The notes below the pieces were generated by a model. That model searched no databases. It had not been told where the DNA came from and saw nothing but the letters and a program-made list of their open reading frames with translations. Positions 39,528 through 55,220 of a stretch of DNA of 64,000 bases are shown here, one piece after another. Position 1 is the stretch's first letter; every line of letters begins with the position of its first letter. The position numbers were made by a program, and so were the translations under genes. The stretch comes from a virus. Its lineage: Duplodnaviria; Caudoviricetes. The stretch spans positions 1-64,000 of the IMG/VR virus record IMGVR_UViG_3300045391_005708. The stretch is one strand, 5' to 3'.

Positions 39528-41291
39528 TCAGGAACCGGCGCCGGTCGCGGTGCCGTTCCGGAGGATGTCGACGCCGATGTGCGTCGAGCCGTCCGGGTTG
39601 AGGCCCACGTTGACGACACGGGAGTCGTTCATCCGCTTGGCCACGAGGAACGGGTCCTCGGTGAACAGCGCGGTGAAGTCGTTCGTGCCGAGGAGGACCG
39701 AGTCGTAGATGTTCTCGAACATGATGCTGTCCGTGACACCCTGGACGAAGGTCCCGGCCGCGTAGAGCAGGAAGGACACGCCGGTCGGCGCGGCGGTGAA
39801 GCCGGACGCCGGGGTGGTGGCGATGTCCTGCCAGTCGACCACGTACTGCGGGTTGACGTTGCGCTGGGCGAACCAGCCGCTGATGCGGGCGTCGGACACG
39901 TCGAGGAGGTCGACGCCGGACCGGCGGGCGAGGTCCATGCGGAGGACGCCCTTCACCCAGTTCGGCAGCACGATCTCCAGCGTCTTGTCGTCCGCGGTGC
40001 GGTTGATCGCCCGGTAGTGCATGGCCTGCAGGTCGATTGCGCTGAGGAGCGGCGCGACGGCCCCGGCCTGGGCGGCGGGCATGGTCACGGCGGTGGACTG
40101 GGTGACCATGCTGTTGATCACCGACGCGCTCTTGCGGTGCGCGTGGGCGTTCAGCGTCTTGGCCACGTAGTCCTCGATGACCTCCGGGTAGCCCCTCTGC
40201 TGGAGCAGGCCCGCGCCGATCGCGACGCCGCAGTAGCCCAGCCGGACCTCCTGGAAGCCCGGGCAGGGGACGCGGGTCACGGGCTTGGTGCCGCCGCCCG
40301 CGCCGTTGTAGTTGCCCGCCTGGTCCTGGGCCTCGGTGTAGCAGAAGCCGGTCGAGGCGAAGACCGCCGAGTAGTCCGGGCCGATGGTGAACCGGATGCC
40401 GCCGCGGTTGATCTGGATCTCGGGGATCGAGACCAGGTTCTCCGCCTCGGTGATGTTCACCAGGTCGTACACGGTCTGGGACGGGGCGCACCAGCCGCCG
40501 GAGGCCACGAGGCTCCCGCCGGGCAGGTTCCTCTCGTCCGTCGCGTACTTCATGGCGTCGGCCGGGTCCTCGTCCTTGACGACGGCGCGCTCGTCGAACT
40601 CGCGCGGGATGCGGGCGATGGTGAACCGCTCCGACTCCCGCACGCCGCGGGCGCGGGCGCCCTCGTACGAGGAGGCGTTGAAGCCGTTCAGGCGGCTGTT
40701 GATCGCCTTGGCCATGTCCATCGTCGTCATCTTGTCGCCGACGTTGTAGCCCATCGCGCCCTGGGCCGCGAGGGCGACCGACGTGGGCCTGTCGCCCTCG
40801 TCCTCCGCCTCCGGCGCGGGGCGCTGGCTGGCCAGCGCGCCCAGGTCGATCTGGATCGGCGCGCGCCGCTTCGACAGCGAGGACGTGTCCGCCGCGTCGG
40901 CGTCGCCGCCCTCCTTGTCGGGCTCCACGCCCTCGGCCTGGGGCTCGTCGCCGTCCGGCTCCGAGTCGGCGCCGTCGCCGTCGCCGGTCGGGTCGTCCTC
41001 GGTCCCGGTCTGGGCCGAGAGCACCTTGTCGGCGATCTCCTTGGCGCGGTTGCTGCGGGACAGGGCGGCCGCGTCGCGGTTCCCGGCCTCGCCGCGGAGG
41101 GCGTCGATCCCCTCCGCCAGGGCGGCCATCGCGTCCAGGGCCTCGTCGGACGGCGCGGAGCCGTCCTCCGGCTGCATCGCCTGGAAGGCGGTGACGGCCT
41201 GGTCGTGGAGGGCCTGCAGGTCCTCGTCGGAGAGCCCGGTCAGGTCCTCCGGGATCTCGATCTTGTTGTCCTTGGTCTGCGAGCGAGGCAT
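39528..41291 (-). CDS. Major capsid (hexamer-type) protein with N-terminal scaffold-like extension
   Basis: Acidic helical N-terminus; SLVASGGWCAPSQTVYDL; P.I.I.RGGIRF. Confidence 0.88.
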   Translation of the reverse strand: MPRSQTKDNKIEIPEDLTGLSDEDLQALHDQAVTAFQAMQPEDGSAPSDEALDAMAALAEGIDALRGEAGNRDAAALSRSNRAKEIADKVLSAQTGTEDDPTGDGDGADSEPDGDEPQAEGVEPDKEGGDADAADTSSLSKRRAPIQIDLGALASQRPAPEAEDEGDRPTSVALAAQGAMGYNVGDKMTTMDMAKAINSRLNGFNASSYEGARARGVRESERFTIARIPREFDERAVVKDEDPADAMKYATDERNLPGGSLVASGGWCAPSQTVYDLVNITEAENLVSIPEIQINRGGIRFTIGPDYSAVFASTGFCYTEAQDQAGNYNGAGGGTKPVTRVPCPGFQEVRLGYCGVAIGAGLLQQRGYPEVIEDYVAKTLNAHAHRKSASVINSMVTQSTAVTMPAAQAGAVAPLLSAIDLQAMHYRAINRTADDKTLEIVLPNWVKGVLRMDLARRSGVDLLDVSDARISGWFAQRNVNPQYVVDWQDIATTPASGFTAAPTGVSFLLYAAGTFVQGVTDSIMFENIYDSVLLGTNDFTALFTEDPFLVAKRMNDSRVVNVGLNPDGSTHIGVDILRNGTATGAGS

Positions 41292-41327: not shown

Positions 41328-41372
41328 CCCGGCACATACACCAGCGGCTCTGTCTGTTCCGTATCATACCCC
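41328..41372 (-). promoter_or_regulatory. GGGG-TATGAT promoter plus conserved 22-nt leader element (MCP)
   Basis: + strand CCCGGCACATACACCAGCGGCT at 41328-41349, identical to 44969-44990; ATCATACCCC at 41363-41372. Confidence 0.7.
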
Positions 41373-44300
41373 GGCCGCGGCCGAGGCCCTGCGCGCGAAC
41401 CTGCCGGTCCGCAGCCCGCGCCGCCCGAGCCACTGCCGCACGTACATGCGGGTGGCGAACGGCGGGGGCTCGGTGGAGCCCTGGAGGCTCTGCTCCAGCG
41501 CCCCCAGGTGGTTGAACATGTCGTCCAGCGCCGTGCCGACCGCGTTGGCCGCCTCGTCGCTGAACTCGCCGTTGTCGGCGGCCGCCATGAGAGTGCCCTC
41601 CAGGTTGGTGAGCCCGCTCTTGGCGGAGTCCAGGTCCCGCTTGTCGTAGTTGCCCTCGTCGACCCCGGAGGTCAGGGCGTCCAGGGCGTCCCTGAAGTTG
41701 CCCAGGTCCTGCCCGATCTTGTCGGAGGTCGTCGGGTCGACCTCGCCCTCCGTCGCGTCCATGAGCGTCTGCTCCAACTTGGACGCGGTGTCGGAGGACT
41801 GCCTGGCCAGCCTCTGCTGCTGGCTTCCCTCGCCCGGCGGGTTGGCGTCGACCGGGGGCGGCCCGGGCCTGCTCGGGGGAGACTCCCCGGCCGCGGGCGG
41901 CAGGCCCCCGCCCTGGCCGCGGGCGTCGGCCACGGCCCTCGACGCGGGGGTGCCCTTGGAGATCGCGGACGACGCCGCCTTCCTCTCCTCGGGGCTCATG
42001 CTCTCCCACTCCGCCTGGCTCACGCCGTCCGGCGCCTTCCCGGCGTCGGCCGCCCCGCCGCCGCCGGGCGCCGCCTCGGCCGGGGCGTCGCCGACGCCCT
42101 TGACGTAGATGTCGTTGTCGCCCCCGCCGAGCATCGTCTCCGGGTCGTCCAGGCCGTCGCCGACCTTGTAGGGGAACGTGTTCTCGTCCAGGCCGGGGCC
42201 GATCTCGGTGATGCGCCACCCGCCCTCGGCCGACGAGTCCTTGACGAAGTTGACGTTCAGGGGTTCCTGGCCGGTGACGACCTCCGTGCCCTCGGGCAGC
42301 GCGTTCAGGACCGCCTGGGCCTGGTCGTCGTGGTTCTGACTGTCGCCCGCCATCTCGTTGGGGTCCTGGACCCATCCGGTCTTGACCACGTGGTCCGCCA
42401 CGGCGGGGTCGAGCCCCGCCTTCCCCAGCGCGTCCGCCAGGCCCGGGCCCGAGTCGGGGGTCTTGGGCGCGTCGCCGCCGGAGATGCCGTGCTCCAGAGC
42501 GTCGATGAGTCCCTGGGCCGCCTCCCGGTCCTTCGGGTTGGTGAGGTACCCGGCCGCGTTCTTGAGTCGGCTGACGGCCTCCTGGCGCACCTGGTCCGAG
42601 GTCTTGCCTCCTTCGGGGCCGAGGGCGCGCTCGTTGGACACGTCGGCCAGGATGTCCTCGAACGGCTGGGGGTCCACGCTCGGGGAGAGGTCGTCGTCGA
42701 TGAGCGTCTGGAGCCCGCCCTCGACCTCCCCGACCCCCATGTCGTACTGGTTCTCGTCCTCCCCCGTGCCCTTGGGCGCGTCGCCGACGACGCCCTTGTC
42801 GCCGCCGCCCACGTCCCCGGCGTCCTTGCCCGCCGGTCCCTCCGCGTCGGCGCCGGGCAGGTCGCCGCCCGGGCCGCCGATGTCCCCCTGGCCCAGGAGG
42901 GACAGGTCGCTGTTCTTCACGGTGTCGACGGCGCCCCGCGCGGAGTCCAACTTGGCCCCGATGTCCGAGGCCGTCTTCTCGTCCAGGGCGCCGCTGTCGG
43001 CGAGGTCCTGGAGTTGGGCCTCGGTCTTCGACAGGGCCTCGTCGGCCGCGTTGGCGGCCGCCTTGGCGGCGTTTCCGTCGCCCCCGCGGAGCGAGTCGGA
43101 GGCGTCCTCTGCGGCCGTGACCGCGTCCTCGACGGACGACCCGATCGCGGACGCCTTGTCGCTGTCGACGCTGGCCGAGTCGAACGCGCTCATGAGGGCG
43201 GACTCCAGGTCCTTGACCCCCGAGTCGGGCATGTCGACCCACTGCCCGGCGTCGGGGTTGCCCTTCGGCACGCGCCACTGGTCGGGGTTGTAGGCGAGGG
43301 TCCCGAGGCCCCTCACGTACTCCCGGGTGCGGCGGACCTTGGCCCACGCCGCGGCCCGCTCCACCCGCGCCGCCAGGGCGGCCGCAGCCTCGCGGCGGTC
43401 CATCTCGCGGAAGCGCTCGCGCAGGGCGAGCAGGGAGTCCTCGTCCGAGAGGTCGACGGTCGTCCTGACCGGCGCCATGACCATGCCGCTGGCCACCAGG
43501 CTCTCGATCCCGCCGGACGCGACCAGGGCGCGGGTGCGGGGCACGGGGAAGCCCGGCACGTTGACGCACAGGGCGCCGACGAGTTCGAGGCGGCCCTGGA
43601 CCTTGCGCCAGTCGCCCGAGACGGGGGCGGCCCGGAGCGCCACCAGGTCGGCGTCCGGCCGGGCCGCCCCCGCGACCCAGATGCCGTGGGAGTCCTCACC
43701 GGCCACCACGTCGGCCCCGGCCAGGCCGGTGTGCTCGTAGTGGTAGATCGCGTCGGTGCTCGACAGCCGCTGGCCCGCGTGCAGGGTGTTCATGGTGATC
43801 TTGCCGGTCGCGACCTCGCCCTTGTCGGTGCGGGTCAGGCCGGTGCGGAAGTACGCGTAGTTGCTGGGCGAGGACGGCGGGCTCGTGCAGACGCCGTGGC
43901 CCTCCGGGCTGGCGATGTGGCACGTGCCCCAGAGGGCGATGTGGCCGTACACCCGGCCGTCGTCCTCCACGGTGAGGCCGGTCGGCTCGCCCAGGCCCGG
44001 GTTGGCGAACCACTCCCTGCGGGGGAGCGCCGGGGCGGCGCTGGCCGTCAGGCCGAAGTCCTCGGACTCCGCGGCGGTCGCGTGGGCGCGGGCCTTCTTC
44101 TCCTCCCACTCGGCCACGTCGGAGCACGCCTGGGCGCGGCTGGCCGCGTTGACCTGCTGGACCCCGGGGAAGTTCACGTCGCCGGTCGCGCACATCTTCT
44201 TGACGACGTTGACGGAGGTCGCGATCGCGTGGCTCTCGTCCATGCCCTTCTCCATCAGGTGCTTGTGGATGCGCTTGATGTAGCCGGGCAGGCCGCCCAC

Positions 44301-44942
44301 GTCCTCGACCCAGTTGAACTCGTCGCTGGCCAGCGTGTCCACGTCATAGAGGTCCAGGTCGAACTGCTCCGGCTGGCTCGTGGCGATGCGGGCTCCCTCG
44401 AACGCCGGGATCGCGACCTGGGTGGCGGCGCGGACGCGGCCCTCCAGGATCTTCATGCTCATGTTGCCGGGCTCGTCCGGCTCCTCGACGAGGATGTCGT
44501 CCAGGTCCATCGACACGCCGGGGGTCAGGTCCTCGTCCACCTGGCGGTACGCCTCGCGGCCGTACTCGCTGCCCAGGTCGCTGGAGCCGGAGCCCCAGAT
44601 GACCGTGGCGTCCTTGAACGACTCGGGCATCGGGTCCTTGCCGTTCCTGGCCAGGCGCTCGTTGGCCTCGTCGTAGTCGATGCGCTCGATGTCCTCGACC
44701 TTGCCGACGACGACGGCGCCGTCGTGGGCGCCCACGTCCTTCTCGACCCAGCGCAGCGGGATCGGCAGGGAGTCCCAGCGCAGCGCGCCCTTCTCGATGT
44801 ACCGGCCGTCGCCGGTCGCCATGCCCTCCAGGCCGATCGGCCCCTCCCAGTGCGCCTTCTGGGTGCCGGTCGTCTCGGGCACCACGTCGGCGTCCGCCGC
44901 CGCGAGGCGGCCGTGCTGGCAGGGCAGGCACTCCGTGGTCAT
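41364..44942 (-). CDS. Capsid maturation protease with large C-terminal extension
   Basis: N-terminal prohead protease (TGDGR, GAHDGA, GVSMDLDD, GRVRAAT.V.IPAF); further conserved domains; ~640-aa acidic tail. Confidence 0.8.
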   Translation of the reverse strand: MTTECLPCQHGRLAAADADVVPETTGTQKAHWEGPIGLEGMATGDGRYIEKGALRWDSLPIPLRWVEKDVGAHDGAVVVGKVEDIERIDYDEANERLARNGKDPMPESFKDATVIWGSGSSDLGSEYGREAYRQVDEDLTPGVSMDLDDILVEEPDEPGNMSMKILEGRVRAATQVAIPAFEGARIATSQPEQFDLDLYDVDTLASDEFNWVEDVGGLPGYIKRIHKHLMEKGMDESHAIATSVNVVKKMCATGDVNFPGVQQVNAASRAQACSDVAEWEEKKARAHATAAESEDFGLTASAAPALPRREWFANPGLGEPTGLTVEDDGRVYGHIALWGTCHIASPEGHGVCTSPPSSPSNYAYFRTGLTRTDKGEVATGKITMNTLHAGQRLSSTDAIYHYEHTGLAGADVVAGEDSHGIWVAGAARPDADLVALRAAPVSGDWRKVQGRLELVGALCVNVPGFPVPRTRALVASGGIESLVASGMVMAPVRTTVDLSDEDSLLALRERFREMDRREAAAALAARVERAAAWAKVRRTREYVRGLGTLAYNPDQWRVPKGNPDAGQWVDMPDSGVKDLESALMSAFDSASVDSDKASAIGSSVEDAVTAAEDASDSLRGGDGNAAKAAANAADEALSKTEAQLQDLADSGALDEKTASDIGAKLDSARGAVDTVKNSDLSLLGQGDIGGPGGDLPGADAEGPAGKDAGDVGGGDKGVVGDAPKGTGEDENQYDMGVGEVEGGLQTLIDDDLSPSVDPQPFEDILADVSNERALGPEGGKTSDQVRQEAVSRLKNAAGYLTNPKDREAAQGLIDALEHGISGGDAPKTPDSGPGLADALGKAGLDPAVADHVVKTGWVQDPNEMAGDSQNHDDQAQAVLNALPEGTEVVTGQEPLNVNFVKDSSAEGGWRITEIGPGLDENTFPYKVGDGLDDPETMLGGGDNDIYVKGVGDAPAEAAPGGGGAADAGKAPDGVSQAEWESMSPEERKAASSAISKGTPASRAVADARGQGGGLPPAAGESPPSRPGPPPVDANPPGEGSQQQRLARQSSDTASKLEQTLMDATEGEVDPTTSDKIGQDLGNFRDALDALTSGVDEGNYDKRDLDSAKSGLTNLEGTLMAAADNGEFSDEAANAVGTALDDMFNHLGALEQSLQGSTEPPPFATRMYVRQWLGRRGLRTGRFARRASAAAGV

Positions 44943-44968
44943 GTGCGGGGTCCTCTCGTCGCAGGAGG

Positions 44969-45008
44969 CCCGGCACATACACCAGCGGCTACGCGCCCAT
45001 CATACCCC
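44969..45008 (-). promoter_or_regulatory. GGGG-TATGAT promoter plus conserved 22-nt leader element (protease)
   Basis: Second copy of the 22-mer; ATCATACCCC at 44999-45008. Confidence 0.7.
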
Positions 45009-45022
45009 TCGGGGGCTTCCGG

Positions 45023-45253
45023 TCAGGAGCCGACGTCCTCTGTCTGGTACAGGTGCTGCAGGAAGTCGCTCGGCGTACCGGCGTCGTCCCACTGAAGGTC
45101 CACCTGCCCCCCGCGGTCCGCGATGTCCCGCATCTCCTGGACCAGGGTGTCGTAGAGGGCGCCCTCCTCGTCGCCCTGGACGACGGCCTCCTTGGGCTTG
45201 CCGAGTGAGGCCGCCCGGGCCAGCGCGTCCACCCTGTCGGTCGCCACGGTCAC
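45023..45253 (-). CDS. Small acidic protein (76 aa), candidate zeta antitoxin
   Basis: GTGA overlap with the stop of the zeta-domain gene. Confidence 0.6.
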   Translation of the reverse strand: MTVATDRVDALARAASLGKPKEAVVQGDEEGALYDTLVQEMRDIADRGGQVDLQWDDAGTPSDFLQHLYQTEDVGS

Positions 45254-48009
45254 TTCCCTCTCCCTTCCCCCAGCGCCCTGAAGGCGTCGTACTTGGCCTG
45301 GTCCGCCACGACCAGCCTCCCCCCGACGTTTCGCGCGAGGAGCGTCGGCGGCTTGGTCGTGGTGTCGTACAGTTCGAAGCCGTCGAAGCGCGGCGCGAGG
45401 TCCGGCACGATGCTGGCCACCGACCTGTGCGTCTCCTCCAGGTAGGCGGGCGGGATGAACCTCCCCGTCTTCTCGCCCCTGGCCTGCGCCCTGGCGAGCG
45501 CCTCCTCGATCGGCACGGTCGCGTAGATCCCGCGCGTCGTGTAGCCAGCCTCCCGCGCCTCGTCCAACTTCCCGCCCATCTTCTCGGCCGAGTGGTCCCC
45601 GGTCCCGTCCAGCACCACGTCCAGGCCTCGCGCGATCGCGGCCTGCCGGAGCCGCATCGCGATCATGGACGACTCCTCGTGCACGTAGGCCGCCGCGCCC
45701 GGGTCCTTGCGGGCCAGGCCCTCCTGGTACTCGGGGATGTCGCCCTTGATGTCGTCGGCGTTGATGAAGACGGCGCTCTCCGGCGAGGGGAAGTTCCCCG
45801 GGTCGGAGTTGACGATCGTGCTCTTCCCGGCCGCCGGGCCGCCGCCCATGAAGGTGAAGGTCTTCTCGCCGGAGGGGTTGGGGCGCACGTCCCCGAGGTA
45901 CTTGGCGACGATCCTGTCGTGCAGGGCCTGTCGCTCCGGGGAGAGGTGGCCGTCCGGGGTGATGTACTTGGCGACGGACCAGGCCGGGTCGACCTCGCCC
46001 AGGTGGACCCGCGACCCGACGTCCCCCTCGCCCCCGGCGCCCACGTCCCCGCGCGAGTCCGCGCCCGGGTCGTACAGGGTCCAGTCGGCGTCGGCCAGGC
46101 TCTCCAGGTCGTCCGCGGCCTGGGTGCCGCGCAGGGCGTCGGCGGCCGCGCGGAGCGGCGCCGGGTCGTCGCCGGGCTCCCACGATGCCGCGGCGTCGGC
46201 CACGTCCTCGGGCAGGTCCAGGCCGCCGACGATCTTGCCCGGGCTGTCGACCCAGCGGCCGGACAGGCCGCCGTTGCCCTTGGGGACGCGGAGTTCGCCC
46301 TCCCACGGCGCGCCGGAGGCCGCCACGGAGTCCGGCTGTCCGGTCAAGGGGAACTCGTGGCGCTCGTCGCCCCACCACAGCGCGACCGCGTCGAACGGGA
46401 TGGCCACCACGTCCTGCGCGGCCTCCAGGTCCTCGTCGGCCAGGCCGGGCTCTTCGTCGCTGCCCCGGTAGCCGACCGTCACGTGGGGCGTGTACTCGGG
46501 GTACTTCGTGGCGCCGGAGTCCTGGTACATGCTGTCCAGTTCGCTGTCCACGCTGTCGCCCCCGCCCAGGGCCTCGAACAGGGCCTGGAGTTCCGGGCTG
46601 TCCAGCATCCAGACCTGCGCGCCGGAGTCGCCCAGGGGCTCGACGCCCCTGACGGTCGCCGCGAACGGCGGGGTGGACCCGGCCACGACCCTGGCGCAGT
46701 CGAGGAACAGCGCCTTGCTGGACAGCATCCGCTGGCCGTCCTCGCTGGCGGACGGCTCGCCGAAGTACGCCAGGGTCGCGTGCTTCTCCTCGGGTCCGAT
46801 GTAGTGGACCACGGCGTCGTCGTGGGGGATCGCCGCGAACATGATCGAGGGGTCCTCCGGGTCCGCGCTCGCCCCGCTGGCCAGCGTCTCCGTCCCGGCG
46901 GCCGCGTTCTCCAGGCCCTTGATCGCGTCCTGCAGTTGCCTCCTCTGCCCGGGCTCCATCTTGTCGGCCCAGCCGTCCAGGAGCCCCTTGACGCTGTTGA
47001 TGACGCTCTTGACGAGGGCCGCGTCTCCCCCGCCCCCGCCGCCCCCGCCGGGCTGCCCGGCCCCGGCCGGGGACGACGGGGAGCCCCTGCCCGGCGCGGC
47101 CTTCTTGGCCGCCGGGCCGCCCTGCTTGCCTCCCCCGCTGCCGCCCTTGTGTCCCCCGCCGCCGTGGTGCGGCGCCGCGGCCTGGCCGTTGATGAACGCC
47201 TCGGCGTTCTTCTTGATCTTCTCCATGAGGGCCTGGACCTGCGGGCCGGAGAGGTCGGCCATGAGCGGCCCGAGCGCCTTGAGGATGCCCTCCATGAGCC
47301 GCTGCACGCGCTGGGCCTTGCTCAACTTCGGGGGCTTCTTCGCGGGGGCCGCCGGGGCCTTCTTGGCCGGTGCCTTCTTGCCCGCTCCGCCGCCCGAGCC
47401 CTTGGGGATGAATCGCCCGCCCTTCGGCGTCCCGGCGTCGCCGCGCGGGTGGGCGCTCTCGTCCCAGTTCGGGTCGCCGGTCTTGGTCGGCTTCATCCTG
47501 GTCGGGTAGCCCGGCCCCCGGCCCTTCTTGGCCGGGGGGCTGGCCTCGGGGGCCGGGGGTCGGGCCGTCTCGGGGTCGCCGGGCCGCGAGACGAGCGCCT
47601 CGGGGGCGAACAGCCGGAGGAGCGCGTCCTCCTCGCTACCGGCGAAGATGTCGACCAGGGCGGCCAGGTCCTCCTCGTCGTCCGCCTGGTCGTCCAGGTC
47701 CGCGTCGCTGCCGGGGAACCTCGCCCCGACGTACTCGTCCGCCAGCGGGCCGTCCGGCACCGCCCAGGGGTCCTCCCCCTCGCGGACGGCCAGGGCGTTG
47801 CCCCTGATGTCGGGGGCCGCGTCGTCCGTGTACCACACGAGCCAGATCCCCAGGAACGTGTTGGGGACCAGGCTCGACGCCTGGACCGTCAGGCCCTCCG
47901 TGCCGCGCTGCCCGTCCAGCCACCCCTGGGCCTTCGCGACCGCGGCCTCGGGCGCCATGAGCGGCGCCTGCTGGGCCGGGTCGTCCACCATGAGTTCGTC
48001 GAGGTCCAT
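45250..48009 (-). CDS. Multidomain head-associated protein: unknown N-terminal domain, 2H phosphoesterase, zeta-toxin kinase
   Basis: HATL and HVTV 2H motifs (46340-46845); MGGGPAAGKST, INADDIK, VHEES, VLDGT, R..R...GR.IP (zeta, 45270-45960). Confidence 0.85.
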   Translation of the reverse strand: MDLDELMVDDPAQQAPLMAPEAAVAKAQGWLDGQRGTEGLTVQASSLVPNTFLGIWLVWYTDDAAPDIRGNALAVREGEDPWAVPDGPLADEYVGARFPGSDADLDDQADDEEDLAALVDIFAGSEEDALLRLFAPEALVSRPGDPETARPPAPEASPPAKKGRGPGYPTRMKPTKTGDPNWDESAHPRGDAGTPKGGRFIPKGSGGGAGKKAPAKKAPAAPAKKPPKLSKAQRVQRLMEGILKALGPLMADLSGPQVQALMEKIKKNAEAFINGQAAAPHHGGGGHKGGSGGGKQGGPAAKKAAPGRGSPSSPAGAGQPGGGGGGGGDAALVKSVINSVKGLLDGWADKMEPGQRRQLQDAIKGLENAAAGTETLASGASADPEDPSIMFAAIPHDDAVVHYIGPEEKHATLAYFGEPSASEDGQRMLSSKALFLDCARVVAGSTPPFAATVRGVEPLGDSGAQVWMLDSPELQALFEALGGGDSVDSELDSMYQDSGATKYPEYTPHVTVGYRGSDEEPGLADEDLEAAQDVVAIPFDAVALWWGDERHEFPLTGQPDSVAASGAPWEGELRVPKGNGGLSGRWVDSPGKIVGGLDLPEDVADAAASWEPGDDPAPLRAAADALRGTQAADDLESLADADWTLYDPGADSRGDVGAGGEGDVGSRVHLGEVDPAWSVAKYITPDGHLSPERQALHDRIVAKYLGDVRPNPSGEKTFTFMGGGPAAGKSTIVNSDPGNFPSPESAVFINADDIKGDIPEYQEGLARKDPGAAAYVHEESSMIAMRLRQAAIARGLDVVLDGTGDHSAEKMGGKLDEAREAGYTTRGIYATVPIEEALARAQARGEKTGRFIPPAYLEETHRSVASIVPDLAPRFDGFELYDTTTKPPTLLARNVGGRLVVADQAKYDAFRALGEGRGK

Positions 48010-51000
48010 CACTTCAGCCTGTTCTCGTCCCGGGGCAGGACCGGCGCGCTCGTCCCGACCTGCCTGAACTTCTCCCACTCCGGGTGCGTCTTCAGGTGGG
48101 TCAGCGCCTTGGCGGCCTCGGTGTACTCCGCCGACGCCGCGGCCCGGGCCTCGCTTAGCCGCACCCACTCCGGGTCGTCGGTCCGCGGGGTGAGGGGCTC
48201 CCCGGGCAGGCGGCTGTTGTACAGCGCCGTCTCTCGCTTCCTCATCGCCTCGTACAGTTTGTTGCTCCTGACGGCCGCCTCGCGGCGGCGCGCCTTGGCG
48301 GCCGCCAGGGCCTTGCCGAAGTCCGGGTCCAGGCCGTTCACGTCCTGGGTGAACGACGGCGGGGACAGCATGGCCTCCACGTCCTTGGCCAGCGGCTTGT
48401 CGTCGAGGCGCATCAACTCGACGCTCCGCCACCCCATGTCGCCCCAGTAGTCGCCCTCCGGCGGGGGCTGGACGACGGCGCCGGTCTGGGCGTCGTAGAA
48501 GGTGACCGAGCCGTCCTCGTTCCGCTCCCAGTTCCAGATGTGGCCGCTGCTCCGGCCGGTCCAGTCGGCGTCGATCGTGCCGCGGCTGCCCGGCGGGTAG
48601 CGGTCGACGGTCGGGGTCGTCCGGCCGTCGTCAGGGCCGAAGTCCTTCTGCGTCAGCGCGGCGACGACCCGCTCGTACTTCCCCTTGGCCCTCGTGCCCT
48701 TGGGGATCTCGACGCGCTCGCTGCTCGTCCAGGTGACCCCGCGGAACCAGACGCCGTACGCGCCGCGCGGGTTGCGGCCGTGGTCGGCGCGCTTGGGGTG
48801 CACGTCGAGGCCCCGGCGGCGCAGTTCGTACGCGGCGCTGGCCAGCACGCAGTTGTGGTTCTTCTGCCCGGCCTGCTCGCGCACGGTGTAGAACTGGCCG
48901 ACAGCCGCGATCACCTCCTCGGGGTGGGTGGACTCCGGCGGCAGCCCGCCGTACCGGCCCGCCAGGTCGGCGTGCACGTCGGACTCCGCCTGCATCGTCA
49001 GGCGCTGCATCACGGCGTCCAACTCGTCCTTCTTGGCCATGAGGGCGCGGCCGACCGGGGTCTGCTCGGCGCCCGTGAACCGCAGGCTGCGGAGGGCGGA
49101 GCCCCACTTGTTGAGGTCGGAGTTCATCGCCGCGGCCGACATGTCCATGAGGAGCGGGGCCTGGCTGTAGACCCAGCCCTCGCCGACTGTCTCCCGGCCG
49201 GGGTGGTACCGCTGCCAGATCGCCAGGTCCGTGATCGCCGCGGACAGGTCCTCCGGCCTCTTCGCGGACAGCGCCCGGTTCAGGTGCCGCTCCCCCTCGC
49301 CGTCCAGTTGCCACTCGTCCGGCTTGAAGAGGCTGTCCTCCCACGCCTGCCGCACGTCGATCAGGGCCTCGCTGGTGTCCGGCCAGGGCTTCGGCATCAA
49401 CTTCGCCGCCACCTTGGCCTTCATCATCGCGTCGTGGAACTTGCCCTCGTCGTTGTACTTCAGGCCGAGGAGCGCGCTGTTCAGCAGGCCGGGCATGACG
49501 CGGTACTGCTCCTCCTGCTCCGGCGTCAGCGTGGCCTGGTTGCCCTCCGTGGAGTAGTACGTCCGCTCGGCGTGGACGCGCTCGACCAACTGCCTCAGCG
49601 CCGCCCGCGCCGCCTCCCGCCGGGCCGCCCCGGGCTGCCCCTCCGTCGACGGCAGGACGGCGTTCAGCGCGTCGACGTAGCGCGCGTGGGGGCCGGGCGG
49701 GGCCTTCGGGGGCAGGGTGGCCCCGGCGTACTTAACGGCGTACGCGGGCACGTCCTCCTGGGCCAGGTAAGGCGGCCAGTAGCCCAGGCCGTCCTTGAAG
49801 TGGTAGGCGCCCCCGACGCTGTTGCAGTAGAGGCCCAGGCTCTCCACGTCCATCGGGCTGTCGAGGAGGATCACGGGGTCGATCTCGACGTTGCCCGTGT
49901 CCTCGTTGCGGAACACGCCCAGGTGGAACTTCTGGTACGGCAGGACCTCGGCGAAGTCGGCCTTGGCCTTGTCCATCGCGTTGGCGACCTCCACGTCCGA
50001 GGACCCGATGGGCACGGTGACCGTCTCGACGCCGGGGCTCTTGGCCGTGATCGCGTACTTCAGGGCGTACTCGTCGCTCTCGGGGTCGACGACCTCGCCC
50101 GTGTGCGCGTCGATGGTGACGCCGCCCCACTCCTCCTTGACGGCCCTGGCGGCCTTGGCCTTCAGCAGGCCCCAGCCGCCGCCCTCCAGGCCGGTCGCCG
50201 GGGACTGGTTGTCCATGAGGTCCTGGAACTGCGCGGCCCCCTGCCGGTACAGGTCCTCGTACGTCGCCAGGTCCACCGCGCGGGTGCGCGGCGTGTCGGG
50301 GTTGCTCAGCCGGTCGCGCGTCATGGGGACCGGCGGGAAGTCGACCTCGGGCGGCACGTCCGGCATGGTGTCCGGCGTCGGCGTCTCGTCGATGTCCGGG
50401 TTGTCTTCTCCCAGGGGCGGCGGGTCCTCGCCTCCGGGCTCCTCCAGGGCGGCCTTCAAGCCGTCCACGTCCCACCCGTAGAAGGCGCTCCCCAGCCCCT
50501 CGGGGTCCTCGACGATCCCCTTGCGCCGCGTCCACCACGGCGCCGAGGCCGGGGTGGGCTCCACGTACAGGGCGACCCCGTCGCCCAGGGCCTTGCGCTG
50601 CGCCGCCTCCAGGAGCCTGGCCCCGGCCCCCTTCTGGAGGGACCCCAGGTAGTCCAGCACGTAGTAGGCGGGGTTCCCGTCCTCGTCGGTCTCGTGCTTG
50701 ACCAGCCCGGCGGCCCCGCGGAGGTTCCCGCCGTCGTCCAGGTCGGCGACGACCGTGGCGGCGTCCCCGAAGTCCCTGGCGGCCTCCAGGGCGCGGCGGG
50801 TGAACTCCGCGCGGTCGTCCTCGCCCTCGACCGTGGCGGCGAGGCGGGCCGCCTCCGCCGCGTCGACCTCCCGGGGGCCGGGACCGGCGTTCGACGGGTC
50901 GTCCTCGGGCGCGTCCGGCGCGACCTGCTTCAGGGTCCCGTCCTTCTCGAAGCCGTGCACGTCCAGGTCGACCTCGGCGTTCTTCTGGGCCTGCACGTTC

Positions 51001-53150
51001 ACCCAGTCCGCGAACTCCTGGTTGCTGATGCCGGGCACGGGCTGGTAGACGGTCTGCCGGTCGTGGGCGCCCGGCCCCTTGGTCGCGTAGCCGAGTTCGA
51101 CGGCGTAGTCCAGGGCGTTGGTCTGGGCGTCCTCCACGATCAGCGCGGGGGTCTTCCCGTCCTCGCCCTGCGTCCTGGTGTCGTCCCCCAGCCCTCCCAG
51201 GTACTCCTCCGCGGCCTGCGCCTCGTCGGCCGTGGGTGCCCTGAAGCCCTCGGGACCCCTGCCCGGCTCGTCGGGGTGCCGGTCGAGCTCCGAGGGGGCG
51301 TCCGCGGGCGCCTTGCGCTGGAAGATCCTGAGGCTCTTGGCCGAGTACGCGGCGTTGGTCTTCCCGCCGCCGGGCTGGCGGCCCAGGCTGTACGTCCACT
51401 CCCCCGCGCCGTCCGGGCTCGCGGCGGTGACGTACCACCACGTCCGCGCCTGCCCCTTGCCCACGATGTCCCCGACCTGGAGGGGAGGCTCGCCGTCCGC
51501 CGGGCGGGCGGGGCTGTAGCGCACGTCCATGCCGGGTTCGAGCCCGGTGGTGTGCGCGTCCAGGCCCTCGTTCCACGCCTGCTTCTTGGTGAGGTCGGAC
51601 TCCTGCTCCTGCGTGAGGTCCAGCCCGGCGTCGCGGTCGGACCGGGCCTGGAGTTCCGCCAGGTACGCGGCCCGCCTGCGGCGCATGGTCGGGGACGGCG
51701 CGGTGTGGTGGGAGTTGATCGCCTCGACGGCCTTCAGCAGTTCGCCGGAGGGCCCCTGCACCAGGGGGTCCTCGCCGACGGGGATGTCTCCGGGGAGGGC
51801 GCCGTCCCAGCGGTTCTTCCGCACGCGGCCCGCGGGCGCCGCCCCCACGTCGCTGGAGCCGTCGAACAGCGTCCAGTCCGTGTCGGCGTACTCGTGGATG
51901 CCGTCCGCCGCCTCGCGCAGGGCGTCGGCCACGCTGGGGTCCGCCGACGACGCCGCGTCCAGGGCCTCGGCGGCCGCGCGGAAGGCGGGAGTCTCTCCCT
52001 CGTACGCCTCGCGGTCGTCGGGGTCGATGCCGTCCAGGGCGTCCCGCGCCTCCGCCACCGCCGCCTTGGCCGGGTCCTCGCCAGGCAGGCCAGCGAGCAG
52101 TTGGTCGAGGTCGTCCAGGTGCTTCCAGGGGGTGAAGGTCCACCGGCCGGAGCGGTCGCCGTTCCCCCTGGGGATGCGCAGTTGGTCGCGCCACGACTCG
52201 CTGGCGAAGGCCGTCGCGGCCGCCGCCAGGGCGTTGTAGTCGGACTCGCGCGCCCCGACCACGGTGCACCGGCAGTTGACCGTCTCCCAGGGCGGCGCGG
52301 ACGGGTCGCCGGGCATCATCAGGAGGGACTGGCCGACCTTGAACGGCCGACCCAGCGGCACGACCTGGCCGTCCGCGTGCCGGTGCGTCTCGCGGGTCCT
52401 GGGGTCCTCGGTGGCCACCCACTCCTTGTAGGCCACGCCCTCCTGCGCGAGCGCCGCGAGCGCGCCGCTGTTCCAGGCGGCCGTCGACTCAGTGCGGGCG
52501 ATGCGCGTGGCCCGGGCCTTCCAGTAGCCCTCGTCCGCCCTGATCCTGTCGACCGCCTCGGCCCGCAGGGCCTGCCAGACCTTGACCTCCGGGTCGTGCC
52601 TGTGCGCGTGCGTCCTGGCCGGGGTGCCGGTCGGCCCGAGCGGGTCCAGGATCCTGTCGATCTGGTCCTCGGCGTACCGCCTCTGCCGCTCCCAGTACCG
52701 CTTGCTGGGCTCCCACCTCAGGCGCTCCGCGATGTCCCGCGCGGCCTGCTCCGTGGACCAGCCGCCGAGGGCCGCGTGGCTCTGGGAGGTCCGCACCTGG
52801 TCGAACGCCTCCTGGGGGATCTCGGGCAGCGCGTCGCGGCTCAGGCGGTCGCGGACGGCCGCCAGGTGGAAGGCCATCGCGTCGGCGCGCGGGCTGACCT
52901 TCCTCTCCCCTCCCCAGGTGGTCGAGAACGCGTCCTCCCAGGTGCGGCGGATCTCCTCGACCACGCTGTCCCTGGTGGAGTCGGTCCACCAGCCCAGCAT
53001 GACGCCGAGGGCCAGGACCGGCTGCGCCTGGTCGGCGCGCCCGGCGCGGACCGCCGCGAGCACGGCGTCCAGGACCTTCCTCAGGAAGGACCGCGTGTCC
53101 TCCTCGACGACCCTCGCCAGGGCCGCCTCGGCGGCGTCACGCCCGTCCAC
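48009..53150 (-). CDS. MuF-like minor head protein with GNAT-like and C-terminal papain-fold toxin domains (1713 aa)
   Basis: RATRIARTES, KEWVAT.D.RTR.TH..ADGQ, LMMPGDP, ETVNCRC (MuF); LDYLGS..KGAG..LL (GNAT-like); NCVLAS..YELRRRG / GHIWNW / FYDAQTG (Tox-PL). Confidence 0.85.
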   Translation of the reverse strand: MDGRDAAEAALARVVEEDTRSFLRKVLDAVLAAVRAGRADQAQPVLALGVMLGWWTDSTRDSVVEEIRRTWEDAFSTTWGGERKVSPRADAMAFHLAAVRDRLSRDALPEIPQEAFDQVRTSQSHAALGGWSTEQAARDIAERLRWEPSKRYWERQRRYAEDQIDRILDPLGPTGTPARTHAHRHDPEVKVWQALRAEAVDRIRADEGYWKARATRIARTESTAAWNSGALAALAQEGVAYKEWVATEDPRTRETHRHADGQVVPLGRPFKVGQSLLMMPGDPSAPPWETVNCRCTVVGARESDYNALAAAATAFASESWRDQLRIPRGNGDRSGRWTFTPWKHLDDLDQLLAGLPGEDPAKAAVAEARDALDGIDPDDREAYEGETPAFRAAAEALDAASSADPSVADALREAADGIHEYADTDWTLFDGSSDVGAAPAGRVRKNRWDGALPGDIPVGEDPLVQGPSGELLKAVEAINSHHTAPSPTMRRRRAAYLAELQARSDRDAGLDLTQEQESDLTKKQAWNEGLDAHTTGLEPGMDVRYSPARPADGEPPLQVGDIVGKGQARTWWYVTAASPDGAGEWTYSLGRQPGGGKTNAAYSAKSLRIFQRKAPADAPSELDRHPDEPGRGPEGFRAPTADEAQAAEEYLGGLGDDTRTQGEDGKTPALIVEDAQTNALDYAVELGYATKGPGAHDRQTVYQPVPGISNQEFADWVNVQAQKNAEVDLDVHGFEKDGTLKQVAPDAPEDDPSNAGPGPREVDAAEAARLAATVEGEDDRAEFTRRALEAARDFGDAATVVADLDDGGNLRGAAGLVKHETDEDGNPAYYVLDYLGSLQKGAGARLLEAAQRKALGDGVALYVEPTPASAPWWTRRKGIVEDPEGLGSAFYGWDVDGLKAALEEPGGEDPPPLGEDNPDIDETPTPDTMPDVPPEVDFPPVPMTRDRLSNPDTPRTRAVDLATYEDLYRQGAAQFQDLMDNQSPATGLEGGGWGLLKAKAARAVKEEWGGVTIDAHTGEVVDPESDEYALKYAITAKSPGVETVTVPIGSSDVEVANAMDKAKADFAEVLPYQKFHLGVFRNEDTGNVEIDPVILLDSPMDVESLGLYCNSVGGAYHFKDGLGYWPPYLAQEDVPAYAVKYAGATLPPKAPPGPHARYVDALNAVLPSTEGQPGAARREAARAALRQLVERVHAERTYYSTEGNQATLTPEQEEQYRVMPGLLNSALLGLKYNDEGKFHDAMMKAKVAAKLMPKPWPDTSEALIDVRQAWEDSLFKPDEWQLDGEGERHLNRALSAKRPEDLSAAITDLAIWQRYHPGRETVGEGWVYSQAPLLMDMSAAAMNSDLNKWGSALRSLRFTGAEQTPVGRALMAKKDELDAVMQRLTMQAESDVHADLAGRYGGLPPESTHPEEVIAAVGQFYTVREQAGQKNHNCVLASAAYELRRRGLDVHPKRADHGRNPRGAYGVWFRGVTWTSSERVEIPKGTRAKGKYERVVAALTQKDFGPDDGRTTPTVDRYPPGSRGTIDADWTGRSSGHIWNWERNEDGSVTFYDAQTGAVVQPPPEGDYWGDMGWRSVELMRLDDKPLAKDVEAMLSPPSFTQDVNGLDPDFGKALAAAKARRREAAVRSNKLYEAMRKRETALYNSRLPGEPLTPRTDDPEWVRLSEARAAASAEYTEAAKALTHLKTHPEWEKFRQVGTSAPVLPRDENRLK

Positions 53151-53541
53151 TGGCCTGCTCCGCGAGCCGGGCGGCCAGGACCTCGAACTCGTGCGGCTTG
53201 GCCGCGCGCACGACCTCGCGGACGTAGGAGTCCAGCGTCGCCGCGAGGTCGTGGTCCGCGACGCTGCAGCACCCGTGGTCGGACACGAGCCGCGGCAGCG
53301 TGGCCCACGCCCCGGCCAGCGCCGCGTCCAGGGCGGCCGCCGCCTCCTGGGGGAAGACCTCGTGCGCCTCGTGGTACCCCTTGCCGGACGCGCGCAGTTG
53401 CCCGAAGTACCTGCCGTTGGCCCGCGCCACGCGCTTGCCGACGAGTTCGAGGGCCCGGATCACGGCGATGTCGCACGCGGCCGCGAGCACCCGCATGTCC
53501 GCCCCGCCCTGGGCCTCGGCCTTCTCCCTGACGGTGCTCAC
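53137..53541 (-). CDS. Hypothetical protein between portal and MuF
   Basis: GTGA overlap with the portal stop; helical, ~134 aa. Confidence 0.65.
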   Translation of the reverse strand: MSTVREKAEAQGGADMRVLAAACDIAVIRALELVGKRVARANGRYFGQLRASGKGYHEAHEVFPQEAAAALDAALAGAWATLPRLVSDHGCCSVADHDLAATLDSYVREVVRAAKPHEFEVLAARLAEQASGRA

Positions 53542-55220
53542 ACGGGGCTCCCCGCCTGGGGCGCGCCCTCCCCGGCCGCGGACGCGGCGGGCGGGGACGC
53601 CCCGTTGGTGGACGGCGGGGCGGGCGTCGGGCTGAAGCCGCGGGCGGGCTCCAGCGTGCCGGGCTCCCGGGCGGACTGCAGCGGCCCGCCCGGGCCGGTC
53701 TGCGGGGTCTTGTCGAACAGGGCCAGGACGTAGGACACGATCTCCGGCATGTTGTCGATGAGTTGCGGGTTGGCCGACGCGATCTGGAGGGCCGTCTTGA
53801 CCGCGACCTCGCGAGCGTCCGGCGCGTCCTCCTCGTCGAAGTTCCCCGCCCCGCGCAGGGCCGCGTCGGAGATGGCCCCGACCTGGTGGAGGGCCGACGC
53901 GTCCTCCAGCCGGTTCGGGCGCTGCACCAGGCCGGACGTGTCGAACTTGACCTCGTAGGACTCCCAGTCCTTGTCGCCCATCTGCCGCTTGATCGGCCGG
54001 TAGAAGCCGGTCGTCAGCGCGTCGGCCAGCAGGCCCAGGCGGGGGTCGATGTGGGCGGACACCACCTCGTCCCGGACCAGCCACATGCCCCAGTGGTTCG
54101 CGTCGCCCATGCCGGACAGGAGTTCCGGCGGCGCGTCCAGGCCGAGGCCCAGGCGCCTGACGTTGCCCTCCAGGAGTTCGGCGCTGTGCTCGTCGAACGG
54201 GGTGCTGAAGGAGTCGAAGCGGATCTTGGAGATCGCGTCCCCGGGGGCGCCCATCAGCAGGGGCACGAACGCGGCCGCGTTCGAGCGGTCCTCCATCGGG
54301 AGGATCATCGCCGCCATGATCGCGTTGAGGACCGGGTTGTCGGAGAACTGCTGCTCCGCCTGGTTGCCGGGGACCTTGGCCGAGTTGAGGATGTCGTTCG
54401 GGAGCCAGTAGACGCCCGCCCCGGCCAGGCGGCTGTCGATCTGCGAGGACTGGTGCTCGGTCAGGCCGACCAGGGTGCGCAGCACCGGCAGGGCGCGGCG
54501 GACGGGGCTGTCCGCGCGCTCCCAGCGGGCCGGGTGCGGGTCCCAGACCTTCTCCACGTACACCTCGTCGGTGTCGTACTCCTCGCCCGCGACCTCGGTC
54601 TTCTTCTTCTTGCGCCTGACCTCCAGCGACGAGTAGACCTGCCAGCGCGTGTTCCCGCCGGTCGTGCCGCCGTCCGCCTCGTCCTCGTCCGGCTCCTCGC
54701 CGTGCGGGCTCAGGCCCTCCAGGGACGGCGCCGCCAACTGGAGCCGGTCGCTCGTCCGGTCGCTCGGGCGCCTGACCGGCAGGCCGCACAGGAAGCACGC
54801 GCCCGCGACGTACACGTTGAGGAACATGCGCTCGACCATCTGCCCCGTGACCAGGGCCAGGATCGGGTCCTCGTCCTCCGAGTTGTCGACCCGCTCGCCG
54901 TCCCGCTCGACGTACATCACGGCCTGGGCCGCGCGGCCGGAGAGCGCGTTGGCGACGTAGGCCATCTCCGGCACCTGGTCGTACATGGCCCAGCACTCCT
55001 CCTGCCAGGCCAGGTCGCCGTCGTCGTCCCGGCGCCGGTCGCGGCGCCTGTCCTCGCGGCTCGTGACGCGGGTCGCGGCCGCGGTCAGCACGCGCACCCC
55101 GACGCCCTCCTGCCAGTCCCCCGCCTCGCGGTCCGCGCTCGTCGGCCCGCCGTACGACCAGGCCGAGGGCTGGGCGACGGTCACGCGGGCGCCGCGGCGG
55201 CGCTCGAACCAGGTGGGCAC
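53538..55220 (-). CDS. Portal protein
   Basis: After terminase; WQEECW.MYD.VPE..YVAN; RLGLGLD.PPE.L.GMG.ANHW..W. Confidence 0.85.
   Translation of the reverse strand: MPTWFERRRGARVTVAQPSAWSYGGPTSADREAGDWQEGVGVRVLTAAATRVTSREDRRRDRRRDDDGDLAWQEECWAMYDQVPEMAYVANALSGRAAQAVMYVERDGERVDNSEDEDPILALVTGQMVERMFLNVYVAGACFLCGLPVRRPSDRTSDRLQLAAPSLEGLSPHGEEPDEDEADGGTTGGNTRWQVYSSLEVRRKKKKTEVAGEEYDTDEVYVEKVWDPHPARWERADSPVRRALPVLRTLVGLTEHQSSQIDSRLAGAGVYWLPNDILNSAKVPGNQAEQQFSDNPVLNAIMAAMILPMEDRSNAAAFVPLLMGAPGDAISKIRFDSFSTPFDEHSAELLEGNVRRLGLGLDAPPELLSGMGDANHWGMWLVRDEVVSAHIDPRLGLLADALTTGFYRPIKRQMGDKDWESYEVKFDTSGLVQRPNRLEDASALHQVGAISDAALRGAGNFDEEDAPDAREVAVKTALQIASANPQLIDNMPEIVSYVLALFDKTPQTGPGGPLQSAREPGTLEPARGFSPTPAPPSTNGASPPAASAAGEGAPQAGSPV

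Follow-up and report, generated by a model that had tools for sequence, protein, structure and literature searches.

Phages carry enzymes in their capsids to disarm or poison the next host, and little work has addressed what shields the virion under assembly, and the cell that produces it, from such capsid enzymes. This question is raised by three overlapping minus-strand genes, here named A, B and C, in the head module of the virus recorded in IMG/VR as IMGVR_UViG_3300045391_005708; the window analysed here is the first 64 kb of this 80,758-bp record. An original prediction had described the three genes as a daisy chain, in which a toxin domain closing A would be neutralised by the N-terminus of B, while a second toxin domain closing B would be neutralised by C. 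The three genes are genuine and lie on the strand and in the frames given there, with an in-frame G+C content at third codon positions (GC3) of 0.94–0.98; gene frames were derived from GC3 analysis and gene identities from PHROG and Pfam scans. What we observe at this locus are recognisable domains with intact catalytic residues, purifying selection and a strict adjacency of the partners across many lineages. We consider it somewhat more probable than not that the region constitutes a head-cargo module with two cognate enzyme-partner pairs in a chain, whose partners would bind and silence the enzymes. The first pair would be formed by the Tox-PL1 domain near the C-terminus of A and the domain of ~100 amino acids (aa) that opens B (the N-domain), the second by the zeta/AvrRxo1-like kinase at the C-terminus of B and the 76-aa protein C, whose synthesis would be coupled translationally to that of B by a GTGA overlap.

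Gene A (48009..53150, minus strand) encodes a MuF-type polyvalent head protein of 1713 aa that is assigned to head morphogenesis by phrog_2468 (E 5e-36) and follows the portal gene. Its MuF (SPP1 gp7-like) domain at aa 202-297 (52260..52547) is matched by Phage_Mu_F (PF04233, E 4e-13) with 50.5 bits against a cut-off of 29.6, and by TIGR01641 (E 7e-8). The Tox-PL1 or Gln_amidase papain-fold domain is located at aa 1433-1557 (48480..48854), where PF15644 scores above its gathering cut-off of 24.1 bits both on the whole protein (27.6 bits, E 6.5e-6) and on the segment (31.3 bits, E 4.8e-7). Tox-PL1 with an NC-H-DxQ signature has been described as a MuF fusion partner (Zhang et al. 2012, PMC3482391). 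In A this signature is complete, with NC at 1433-1434 (Cys1434), His1537 and D-A-Q at 1553-1555 (Asp1553, Gln1555); all seven aligned homologues keep H, D and Q, and the six that cover the NC part keep it without exception. Every module that we tested by the ratio of nonsynonymous to synonymous substitution rates (dN/dS) against the nearest relative, L017, is under purifying selection, the value for Tox-PL1 being 0.26. The predicted papain-fold domain with a C-H-D triad is therefore present in the MuF protein, but the protein does not end in it: a conserved, mostly helical tail of 156 aa (48012..48479) follows, which according to the homologue alignment is kept in all relatives at 117-155 aa with the terminus G.S.P.L.

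Gene B (45250..48009, minus strand) begins directly at this tail, its ATG start sharing one nucleotide with the stop codon of A (TGATG). Frame and domain scans divide its 919 aa into the putative partner N-domain, a short boundary tag, a Gly-rich helical linker, a 2H phosphoesterase, a second tag and the kinase, and L017 encodes a 944-aa homologue of identical architecture. That the gene overlapping A opens with a ~100-aa domain and closes with a zeta-type kinase domain (Zeta_toxin, E 3e-25) had thus been read correctly, while the 2H phosphoesterase between them had been overlooked.

The N-domain (aa 1 to ~100, 47710..48009), which we propose as partner or inhibitor of Tox-PL1 from homologue and neighbour searches, is rare. 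A HMMER search with B aa 1-160 against 1.84 billion representative proteins returned only five relatives of 111-297 aa, in which the domain is always N-terminal; further relatives were added by a profile search and a scan of IMG/VR. Together they represent nine lineages (the window with L017, L009, L010, L011, the group of L012, L020 and L021, L015, L022, L110 with L111, and L112), and in 9/9 the N-domain gene directly follows a protein that carries PF15644 in its C-terminal part, the two genes overlapping or lying at most ~10 nucleotides (nt) apart. In four lineages the domain is a stand-alone protein of about 95, 111, 124 or 127 aa, and these proteins stop just before the point at which the fused forms continue with a W-x3-HPR...G-R-F motif. 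The other lineages have it fused, either in proteins of 274-297 aa made up of the domain, a tag and a Gly-rich helical linker, or in longer ones that add a 2H domain (528 aa, L112) or a 2H domain and the kinase (919-944 aa, window and L017). The dN/dS of the N-domain against L017 is 0.27. The adjacency backs the predicted pairing, and by position the assignment of the N-domain as a putative cognate partner of Tox-PL1 is well supported.

The kinship that had been suggested for this domain, to the immunity family Imm35, was not borne out. PF15567 gave no match at E<=10, neither in hmmscan nor in a six-frame search of the whole genome, and we reject the N-domain as an Imm35 member at the level of sequence. 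Imm35 has been described as specific to Tox-PL1 (Zhang et al. 2012, PMC3482391), and just such a specific genomic association with Tox-PL1 is found for the N-domain in all nine lineages. Cultured phages with MuF-Tox-PL1 or solo Tox-PL1 proteins (Klausavirus Arthrobacter phages, Microbacterium phage GardenState and mycobacteriophage Hutc2) encode a different acidic protein of ~100 aa in the downstream slot. One member of this slot family, KBurrousTX gp6, bears the GenBank note "Antitoxin, imm35 Domain Protein", despite which no PF15567 match was obtained for the family, and no profile similarity to the N-domain family was detected (hhalign probability 0.2). Pfam (E<=10), PHROGs, NCBIfam and the ESM Atlas returned nothing for the N-domain, for C or for the other members of the C family described below.

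An AlphaFold2 (AF2) model of the N-domain shows one helix packed on a five-stranded sheet, with a mean predicted local distance difference test (pLDDT) score of 73.5. A Foldseek search against the PDB gave no significant match for this model or for that of C; the best fold matches of the N-domain model are PepSY, cystatin-fold proteins including a papain-bound cystatin, and the colicin M immunity protein, at Z 5–6 and possibly reflecting a common arrangement. Papain inhibitors (cystatins) and PepSY among these weak matches would suit a different role for the first pair: within the head module, Tox-PL1 would act as a processing peptidase that cuts cargo polyproteins, for instance near the tags, while particles assemble or eject their contents. 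The N-domain would then be its temporary inhibitor or substrate-like regulator, and only the kinase and C would resemble a toxin-antitoxin (TA) pair. Such a role was proposed for MuF-Tox-PL1 by Zhang et al. 2012 (PMC3482391), and it would agree with the position and sequence of Tox-PL1 being invariant over deep divergence while 2H and kinase, as modules, move between A and B, as well as with Tox-PL1 being the best-conserved part of the C-terminal third of A (88% identity versus 67-69% in the flanks). The phage, however, already has a dedicated prohead protease in gene D, and mycobacteriophage Hutc2 encodes its solo Tox-PL1, annotated as a 'VIP2-like toxin', together with a small downstream gene outside the head module. 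We therefore judge the processing peptidase unlikely, and turn to the second pair of the proposed silenced cargo.

The kinase domain of B (45253..45990, minus strand) is matched by Zeta_toxin (PF06414) at aa 712-873 with 89.1 bits against a cut-off of 22.3, and it retains both the Walker A motif and the catalytic Asp. Its residues GGGPAAGKS with Lys729, Asp752, HEESS at 777-781 and LDGTGD at 800-805 recur in the 12 kinase clade members compared, in which GGGPAxGK (Lys729), Asp752, HEESS, LDGTGD and two arginines are invariant, and Asp752 aligns with the catalytic Asp of zeta and AvrRxo1. With a dN/dS of 0.08 against L017, the domain is under purifying selection. In a comparison of the kinase profile with the PDB, zeta (1gvn) was found with E 5.5e-9 over 124 columns and AvrRxo1-ORF1 (4z8q) with E 1.4e-7 over 220 columns, the latter with PER..LH and H-x-E-S-S motifs in common; PezT followed with E 1.2e-5 and Pnkp1 weakly with E 1.4e-4. 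While the zeta-type kinase of the original prediction is confirmed, UDP-GlcNAc as its default substrate is not, since the longer alignment with AvrRxo1 means that UDP-GlcNAc is not the sole candidate. Relatives of the kinase at 40-52% identity are stand-alone proteins of 300-360 aa or MuF fusions. A scan of IMG/VR with the single kinase sequence as query gave no match; an alignment-based scan recovered 343 relatives, and 80 IMG/VR loci were kept from it.

Gene C (45023..45253, minus strand) encodes the predicted 76-aa acidic protein, with an isoelectric point (pI) of 4.1. Its GTG start lies in the GTGA overlap with the stop codon of B and is preceded by GGGAGAGGG, a Shine-Dalgarno-like run. 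C has one close homologue (P0008) of 78% identity, which again directly follows a 944-aa 2H-kinase protein and against which its dN/dS is 0.22. In 4/4 kinase loci inspected, three of them head modules, an open reading frame (ORF) of 60-81 aa lies immediately 3' of the kinase, and these ORFs are homologous to one another and to C (hhalign probability 81%, E 1.2e-5). A hidden Markov model (HMM) of this C family, built from IMG/VR using only ORFs downstream of the kinase and without C itself, matches C at E 1.1e-7. Across the 80 loci, the C-family domain begins no more than 260 nt after the kinase in 66, corresponding to 37 of the 46 clusters at 70% identity, and the HMM matches only 75 of the 9604 ORFs of these loci. 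The adjacency backs the predicted kinase-C pairing and marks the pair as widespread, a partner being present in about 80% of the sampled clusters. We propose C as a putative partner or antitoxin of the kinase; the gene order of the two is of the AvrRxo1 type and not of the epsilon/zeta type.

The C family has a helical core of ~55 aa, most members comprising about 55-95 aa, and no model in Pfam or PHROGs. From a 44-sequence alignment, AF2 predicts a helical hairpin for C (pLDDT 75), to which an acidic, disordered tail is attached. A search of the C-family profile against the PDB at E<=10 gave no match to epsilon, PezA or AvrRxo1-ORF2 (Arc1), although sequence methods may be unable to detect relationships among helical proteins as short as these. 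The pentatricopeptide matches of the profile were dismissed as a repeat artefact, in which eight matches of 3 bits each had been summed. Small ORFs also follow the B-like proteins of L010, L011, L012 and L015; they are not homologues of C, and two of them are the N-terminus of the protease. In the Mycobacterium phage Phrappuccino (L019, gp57-gp58), a 1088-aa protein with a zeta-like C-terminal domain directly follows the major head protein. The protein encoded next, which is acidic (pI 4.45) and has 90 aa, does not align with the C family.

Could both adjacencies be mere conserved synteny, with the N-domain and C being unrelated small head-module proteins that have no functional link to the enzymes? 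The head modules of the N-domain lineages are homologous to one another, which would be in line with this explanation. The kinase-C pairing, however, spans unrelated contexts with G+C contents of 46-72%, in which the kinase occurs alone, fused to MuF or beside an integrase, and among the B-like proteins C is found only where the kinase is present, never in a relative whose B-like protein is without it. The slot after Tox-PL1, moreover, is filled by three different small acidic families. We consider synteny without functional pairing highly improbable. As a separate observation, locus L025 (5001-7275) carries the kinase-partner pair beside a tyrosine integrase and a helix-turn-helix repressor-like gene outside any head module, so the pair also occurs as a 'moron' at a prophage end.

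The chain layout itself, in which a partner is fused onto the next protein, recurs in other phages. In at least 11 of the 80 loci the C-family domain forms the N-terminus of the next longer protein, built like the N-domain on B. In L033, L059 and L060 this longer protein is the S78_2 prohead protease, and in L099 it carries a RelA/SpoT domain; that of L037 has 1187 aa and includes a 2H domain, while that of L094 has 1405 aa and combines S78_2 with a metallopeptidase-like region. As these fusions recur independently, the daisy chain of the original prediction is a pattern and not a local accident. The same fusions would also be expected if the partners were loading adaptors or chaperones that tether the enzymes to procapsid-entering proteins, the fusions serving co-packaging. 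Besides the C-family fusions to the protease and other cargo proteins, the fusion of the N-domain to cargo-like proteins in most lineages fits this idea, and Arc1 is reported to have been seen initially as an AvrRxo1 chaperone (bioRxiv 10.1101/2023.12.02.569727). Most C-family members and the four stand-alone N-domain lineages, however, are single small proteins, which would be unable to tether anything by themselves, and adjacent overlapping genes fuse readily, so that the fusions may be neutral. A role in loading in place of silencing appears to us distinctly unlikely.

The 2H phosphoesterase (2_5_RNA_ligase2) of B occupies aa 410-549 (46363..46782, minus strand) and is supported by PF13563 (E 3e-9; 37.4 bits against a cut-off of 27) and a weak Acb1 match. 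Both HxT motifs are present, as HATL at 410-413 (His410/Thr412) and HVTV at 509-512 (His509/Thr511), and the dN/dS against L017 is 0.43. The combination of a 2H domain with a polynucleotide-kinase fold, together with the weak Pnkp1 match mentioned above, would be reminiscent of an RNA end-healing pair such as the healing domains of tRNA ligases, which could repair RNA cut by host defence nucleases without any toxin being involved. We give hardly any credence to this possibility. Relatives have the two domains independently of each other: 2H occurs alone in L112 and within the MuF protein in L012, and dozens of loci have only the kinase. The kinase, which has a small partner of its own, resembles the zeta and AvrRxo1 toxins far more closely. 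A ligase gene is not present nearby, and the 2H domains of polyvalent proteins never associate with RNA ligases (Iyer et al., PMC5512222). More generally, domains of the kinase and 2H types turn up repeatedly in fusions with MuF, portal-adjacent or protease proteins, in agreement with PMC5512222, and cyanophage PSS2 as well as Microbacterium and Arthrobacter phages have head proteins that are matched by domains of B.

The modules of these proteins are delimited by short boundary tags of the form W-x(2-4)-[HLW]-[PR]-[RVI]-x(3-10)-G-[RKQ]-[WF], which a six-frame regular-expression scan located on the minus strand directly after the MuF domain in A (LRIPRGNGDRSGRW, 52140..52178), after the partner N-domain (NWDESAHPRGDAGTPKGGRF, 47410..47466) and before the kinase (LRVPKGNGGLSGRW, 46252..46290) in B, and after the prohead protease domain in D (WRVPKGNPDAGQW, 43239..43274). 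Some stand-alone kinase relatives begin with K-[FY]-[DN]-P-x-Q-P-R-D-x2-G-R-F and a Gly-rich linker; the HPR-type tag is not universal in the kinase clade, as only 9 of 72 kinase ORFs match the pattern used. A linker of B (46069-46155), with its DWTLYD box at 46069-46086, is paralogous to A 51861-51982, from the tag to the D[AT]DWTL[YF]D box, at a DNA identity of 74-76%, which suggests a duplication or exchange of modules between the cargo genes A and B. In the MuF protein of L012 (2534-7996), a 2H domain (aa 380-496) stands together with a weak ParB_N match (aa 908-970), so modules do move between the MuF protein and the next gene. The ~1100 residues between MuF and Tox-PL1 in A (aa ~300-1430, 48861-52253) gave no Pfam, NCBIfam or PDB sequence match and probably hold further uncharacterised cargo domains.

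The surrounding head module runs on the minus strand in the order TerL, portal, a 134-aa gene, A, B, C, D and major capsid protein, with the large terminase (TerL) at 55438-57048, the portal at 53538-55220, the 134-aa gene between the portal and A, gene D at 41364-44978 and the major capsid protein at 39528-41291. Both A and B thus lie between portal and prohead protease. Gene D, identified by phrog_18402 and phrog_21470 together with the boundary motif scan, encodes the prohead protease and a scaffold-like tail. Its start is probably the second Met (MTTECLPCQ...), 12 codons into the longest ORF (region 44942-44978), and its relatives in L010 and L015 begin at this MTTECLPCQ motif. L016 (3106-4500), from the closest relative, has an extra gene for a 464-aa protein with BNR_4, a sialidase-like repeat, between C and the prohead protease, which the window is without. 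The G+C content of the window is ~72%, and the uncultured phage belongs to the high-GC phages of actinobacteria; megablast against cultured phages gave no close relative, and the nearest cultured capsid proteins, at 40-45% identity, are those of Microbacterium phages. The 80,758-bp record is complete and has direct terminal repeats; searches of the whole genome for a tyrosine or serine integrase found none. The phage is probably virulent, with lysogeny by other modes still conceivable, and since the complete genome is without an integrase, immunity in the sense of lysogen or kin protection is doubtful.

How, then, might the module work? A, and probably B, would be capsid cargo. The enzymes would be produced late in infection, each partner binding its own enzyme during synthesis and silencing it in the producing cell; a silencing partner for each enzyme would be expected because this cell must stay productive until lysis. 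MuF and the short boundary tags would bring Tox-PL1, 2H and kinase into the capsid, and the enzymes would become active once injected into the next host; the partners might be left behind, cut off at a tag or degraded. There, the papain-fold domain may proteolyse or deamidate a host target, the kinase may phosphorylate a nucleotide sugar or NAD, and RNA ends or nucleotide signals may be degraded by the 2H domain. All that concerns binding, inhibition, packaging and substrates in this scheme is inferred. Extended beyond this phage, the same scheme would amount to a general rule, by which each injected toxin-like enzyme is directly followed by a cognate silencing partner, repeatedly fused to the N-terminus of the next cargo protein or of the prohead protease, and chains of enzyme-partner complexes are made, silenced and perhaps loaded together. 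One partner family would then serve MuF-borne Tox-PL1 and the other the large phage clade of AvrRxo1/zeta-like kinases. We put this generalisation forward tentatively and regard it as somewhat doubtful.

Several observations weigh against two silenced enzyme-partner pairs. All lineages with the N-domain belong to a single family of related head modules, and conserved synteny thus accounts for some of the 9/9 adjacency. The N-domain has no sequence or profile tie to Imm35 or to any known immunity family, and its fold matches at Z 5–6 are within the range of common arrangements. Tox-PL1 is constant and not polymorphic across the clade, which suits a housekeeping role equally well as a toxin role. 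As for the second pair, 9 of the 46 kinase clusters are without a detectable C-family gene, C is without similarity to epsilon, PezA or Arc1, and the fusion of C-family domains to the prohead protease may mean a role in loading and not in inhibition.

MuF-Tox-PL1 fusions, Imm35 as a Tox-PL1 partner and MuF-linked 2H and zeta domains are already published. Within the literature searched, the N-domain family, the C family with its close linkage to a large clade of phage kinases, partners fused onto the next head protein and such a layout in an apparently virulent phage appear to be unpublished, and neither partner family is present in Pfam or PHROGs. If the partners do inhibit, a papain-fold enzyme and a zeta/AvrRxo1-type kinase would each have a new small protein inhibitor, and the chain of fusions would illustrate how a cargo of several enzymes is held inactive and in stoichiometric amounts. 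The locus also calls for caution in annotating such kinases as UDP-GlcNAc kinases by default and in taking every phage toxin with a small adjacent gene for a classic TA system.

Among known systems, the MuF polymorphic toxins (PMC3482391, PMC5576092; Bxa-Bsi/BAH, PMC11699363) likewise combine an N-terminal MuF domain, a C-terminal toxin-type domain and a small gene directly downstream. Here, in contrast, Tox-PL1 is not terminal but followed by the 156-aa tail and does not vary within the clade, and the downstream partner belongs to a new family, is not detectably Imm35 and is fused to a 919-aa multi-enzyme protein. MuF toxins have furthermore been reported as a feature of temperate phages (Jamet et al. 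2017, PMC5576092), in a list that includes neither papain-fold nor zeta domains, whereas the phage studied here has no tyrosine or serine integrase. Epsilon/zeta and PezAT share with the second pair the Zeta_toxin match and a small, helical, acidic partner. They differ in that their antitoxin gene lies upstream, while the candidate antitoxin gene here lies downstream, is unrelated in sequence and lacks a PezA-type DNA-binding domain, and in that they are plasmid or chromosomal addiction modules, not virion modules. Closer in layout is AvrRxo1-Arc1 (PMC5491322, PMC4938570, PMC5087710). AvrRxo1 phosphorylates NAD and is bacteriostatic without the downstream Arc1 (PMC5491322, PMC4938570), and it is "always encoded upstream" of its small partner (PMC5491322). 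The zeta-fold kinase with Walker A, catalytic Asp and H-x-E-S-S motif is found in both systems, as is a small helical partner immediately downstream, an order unusual for TA systems. C with its ~55-aa core, however, has no detectable similarity to Arc1 (81-98 aa), and the kinase is a domain of a phage head-module protein and not a type III effector. The phage polyvalent proteins (Iyer et al. 2017, PMC5512222), finally, are large multi-domain proteins encoded among virion genes and are predicted to enter the new host together with the DNA; MuF fusions with 2H and zeta-like kinase domains are listed among these virion passengers. A, with MuF and Tox-PL1, and B, with 2H and kinase, conform to this description, to which the locus adds dedicated partner genes, N-terminal partner fusions and a boundary motif that PMC5512222 does not contain. 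The locus is thus most likely virion cargo of the polyvalent-protein type equipped with silencing partners, and not a classic TA or lysogen-immunity system.

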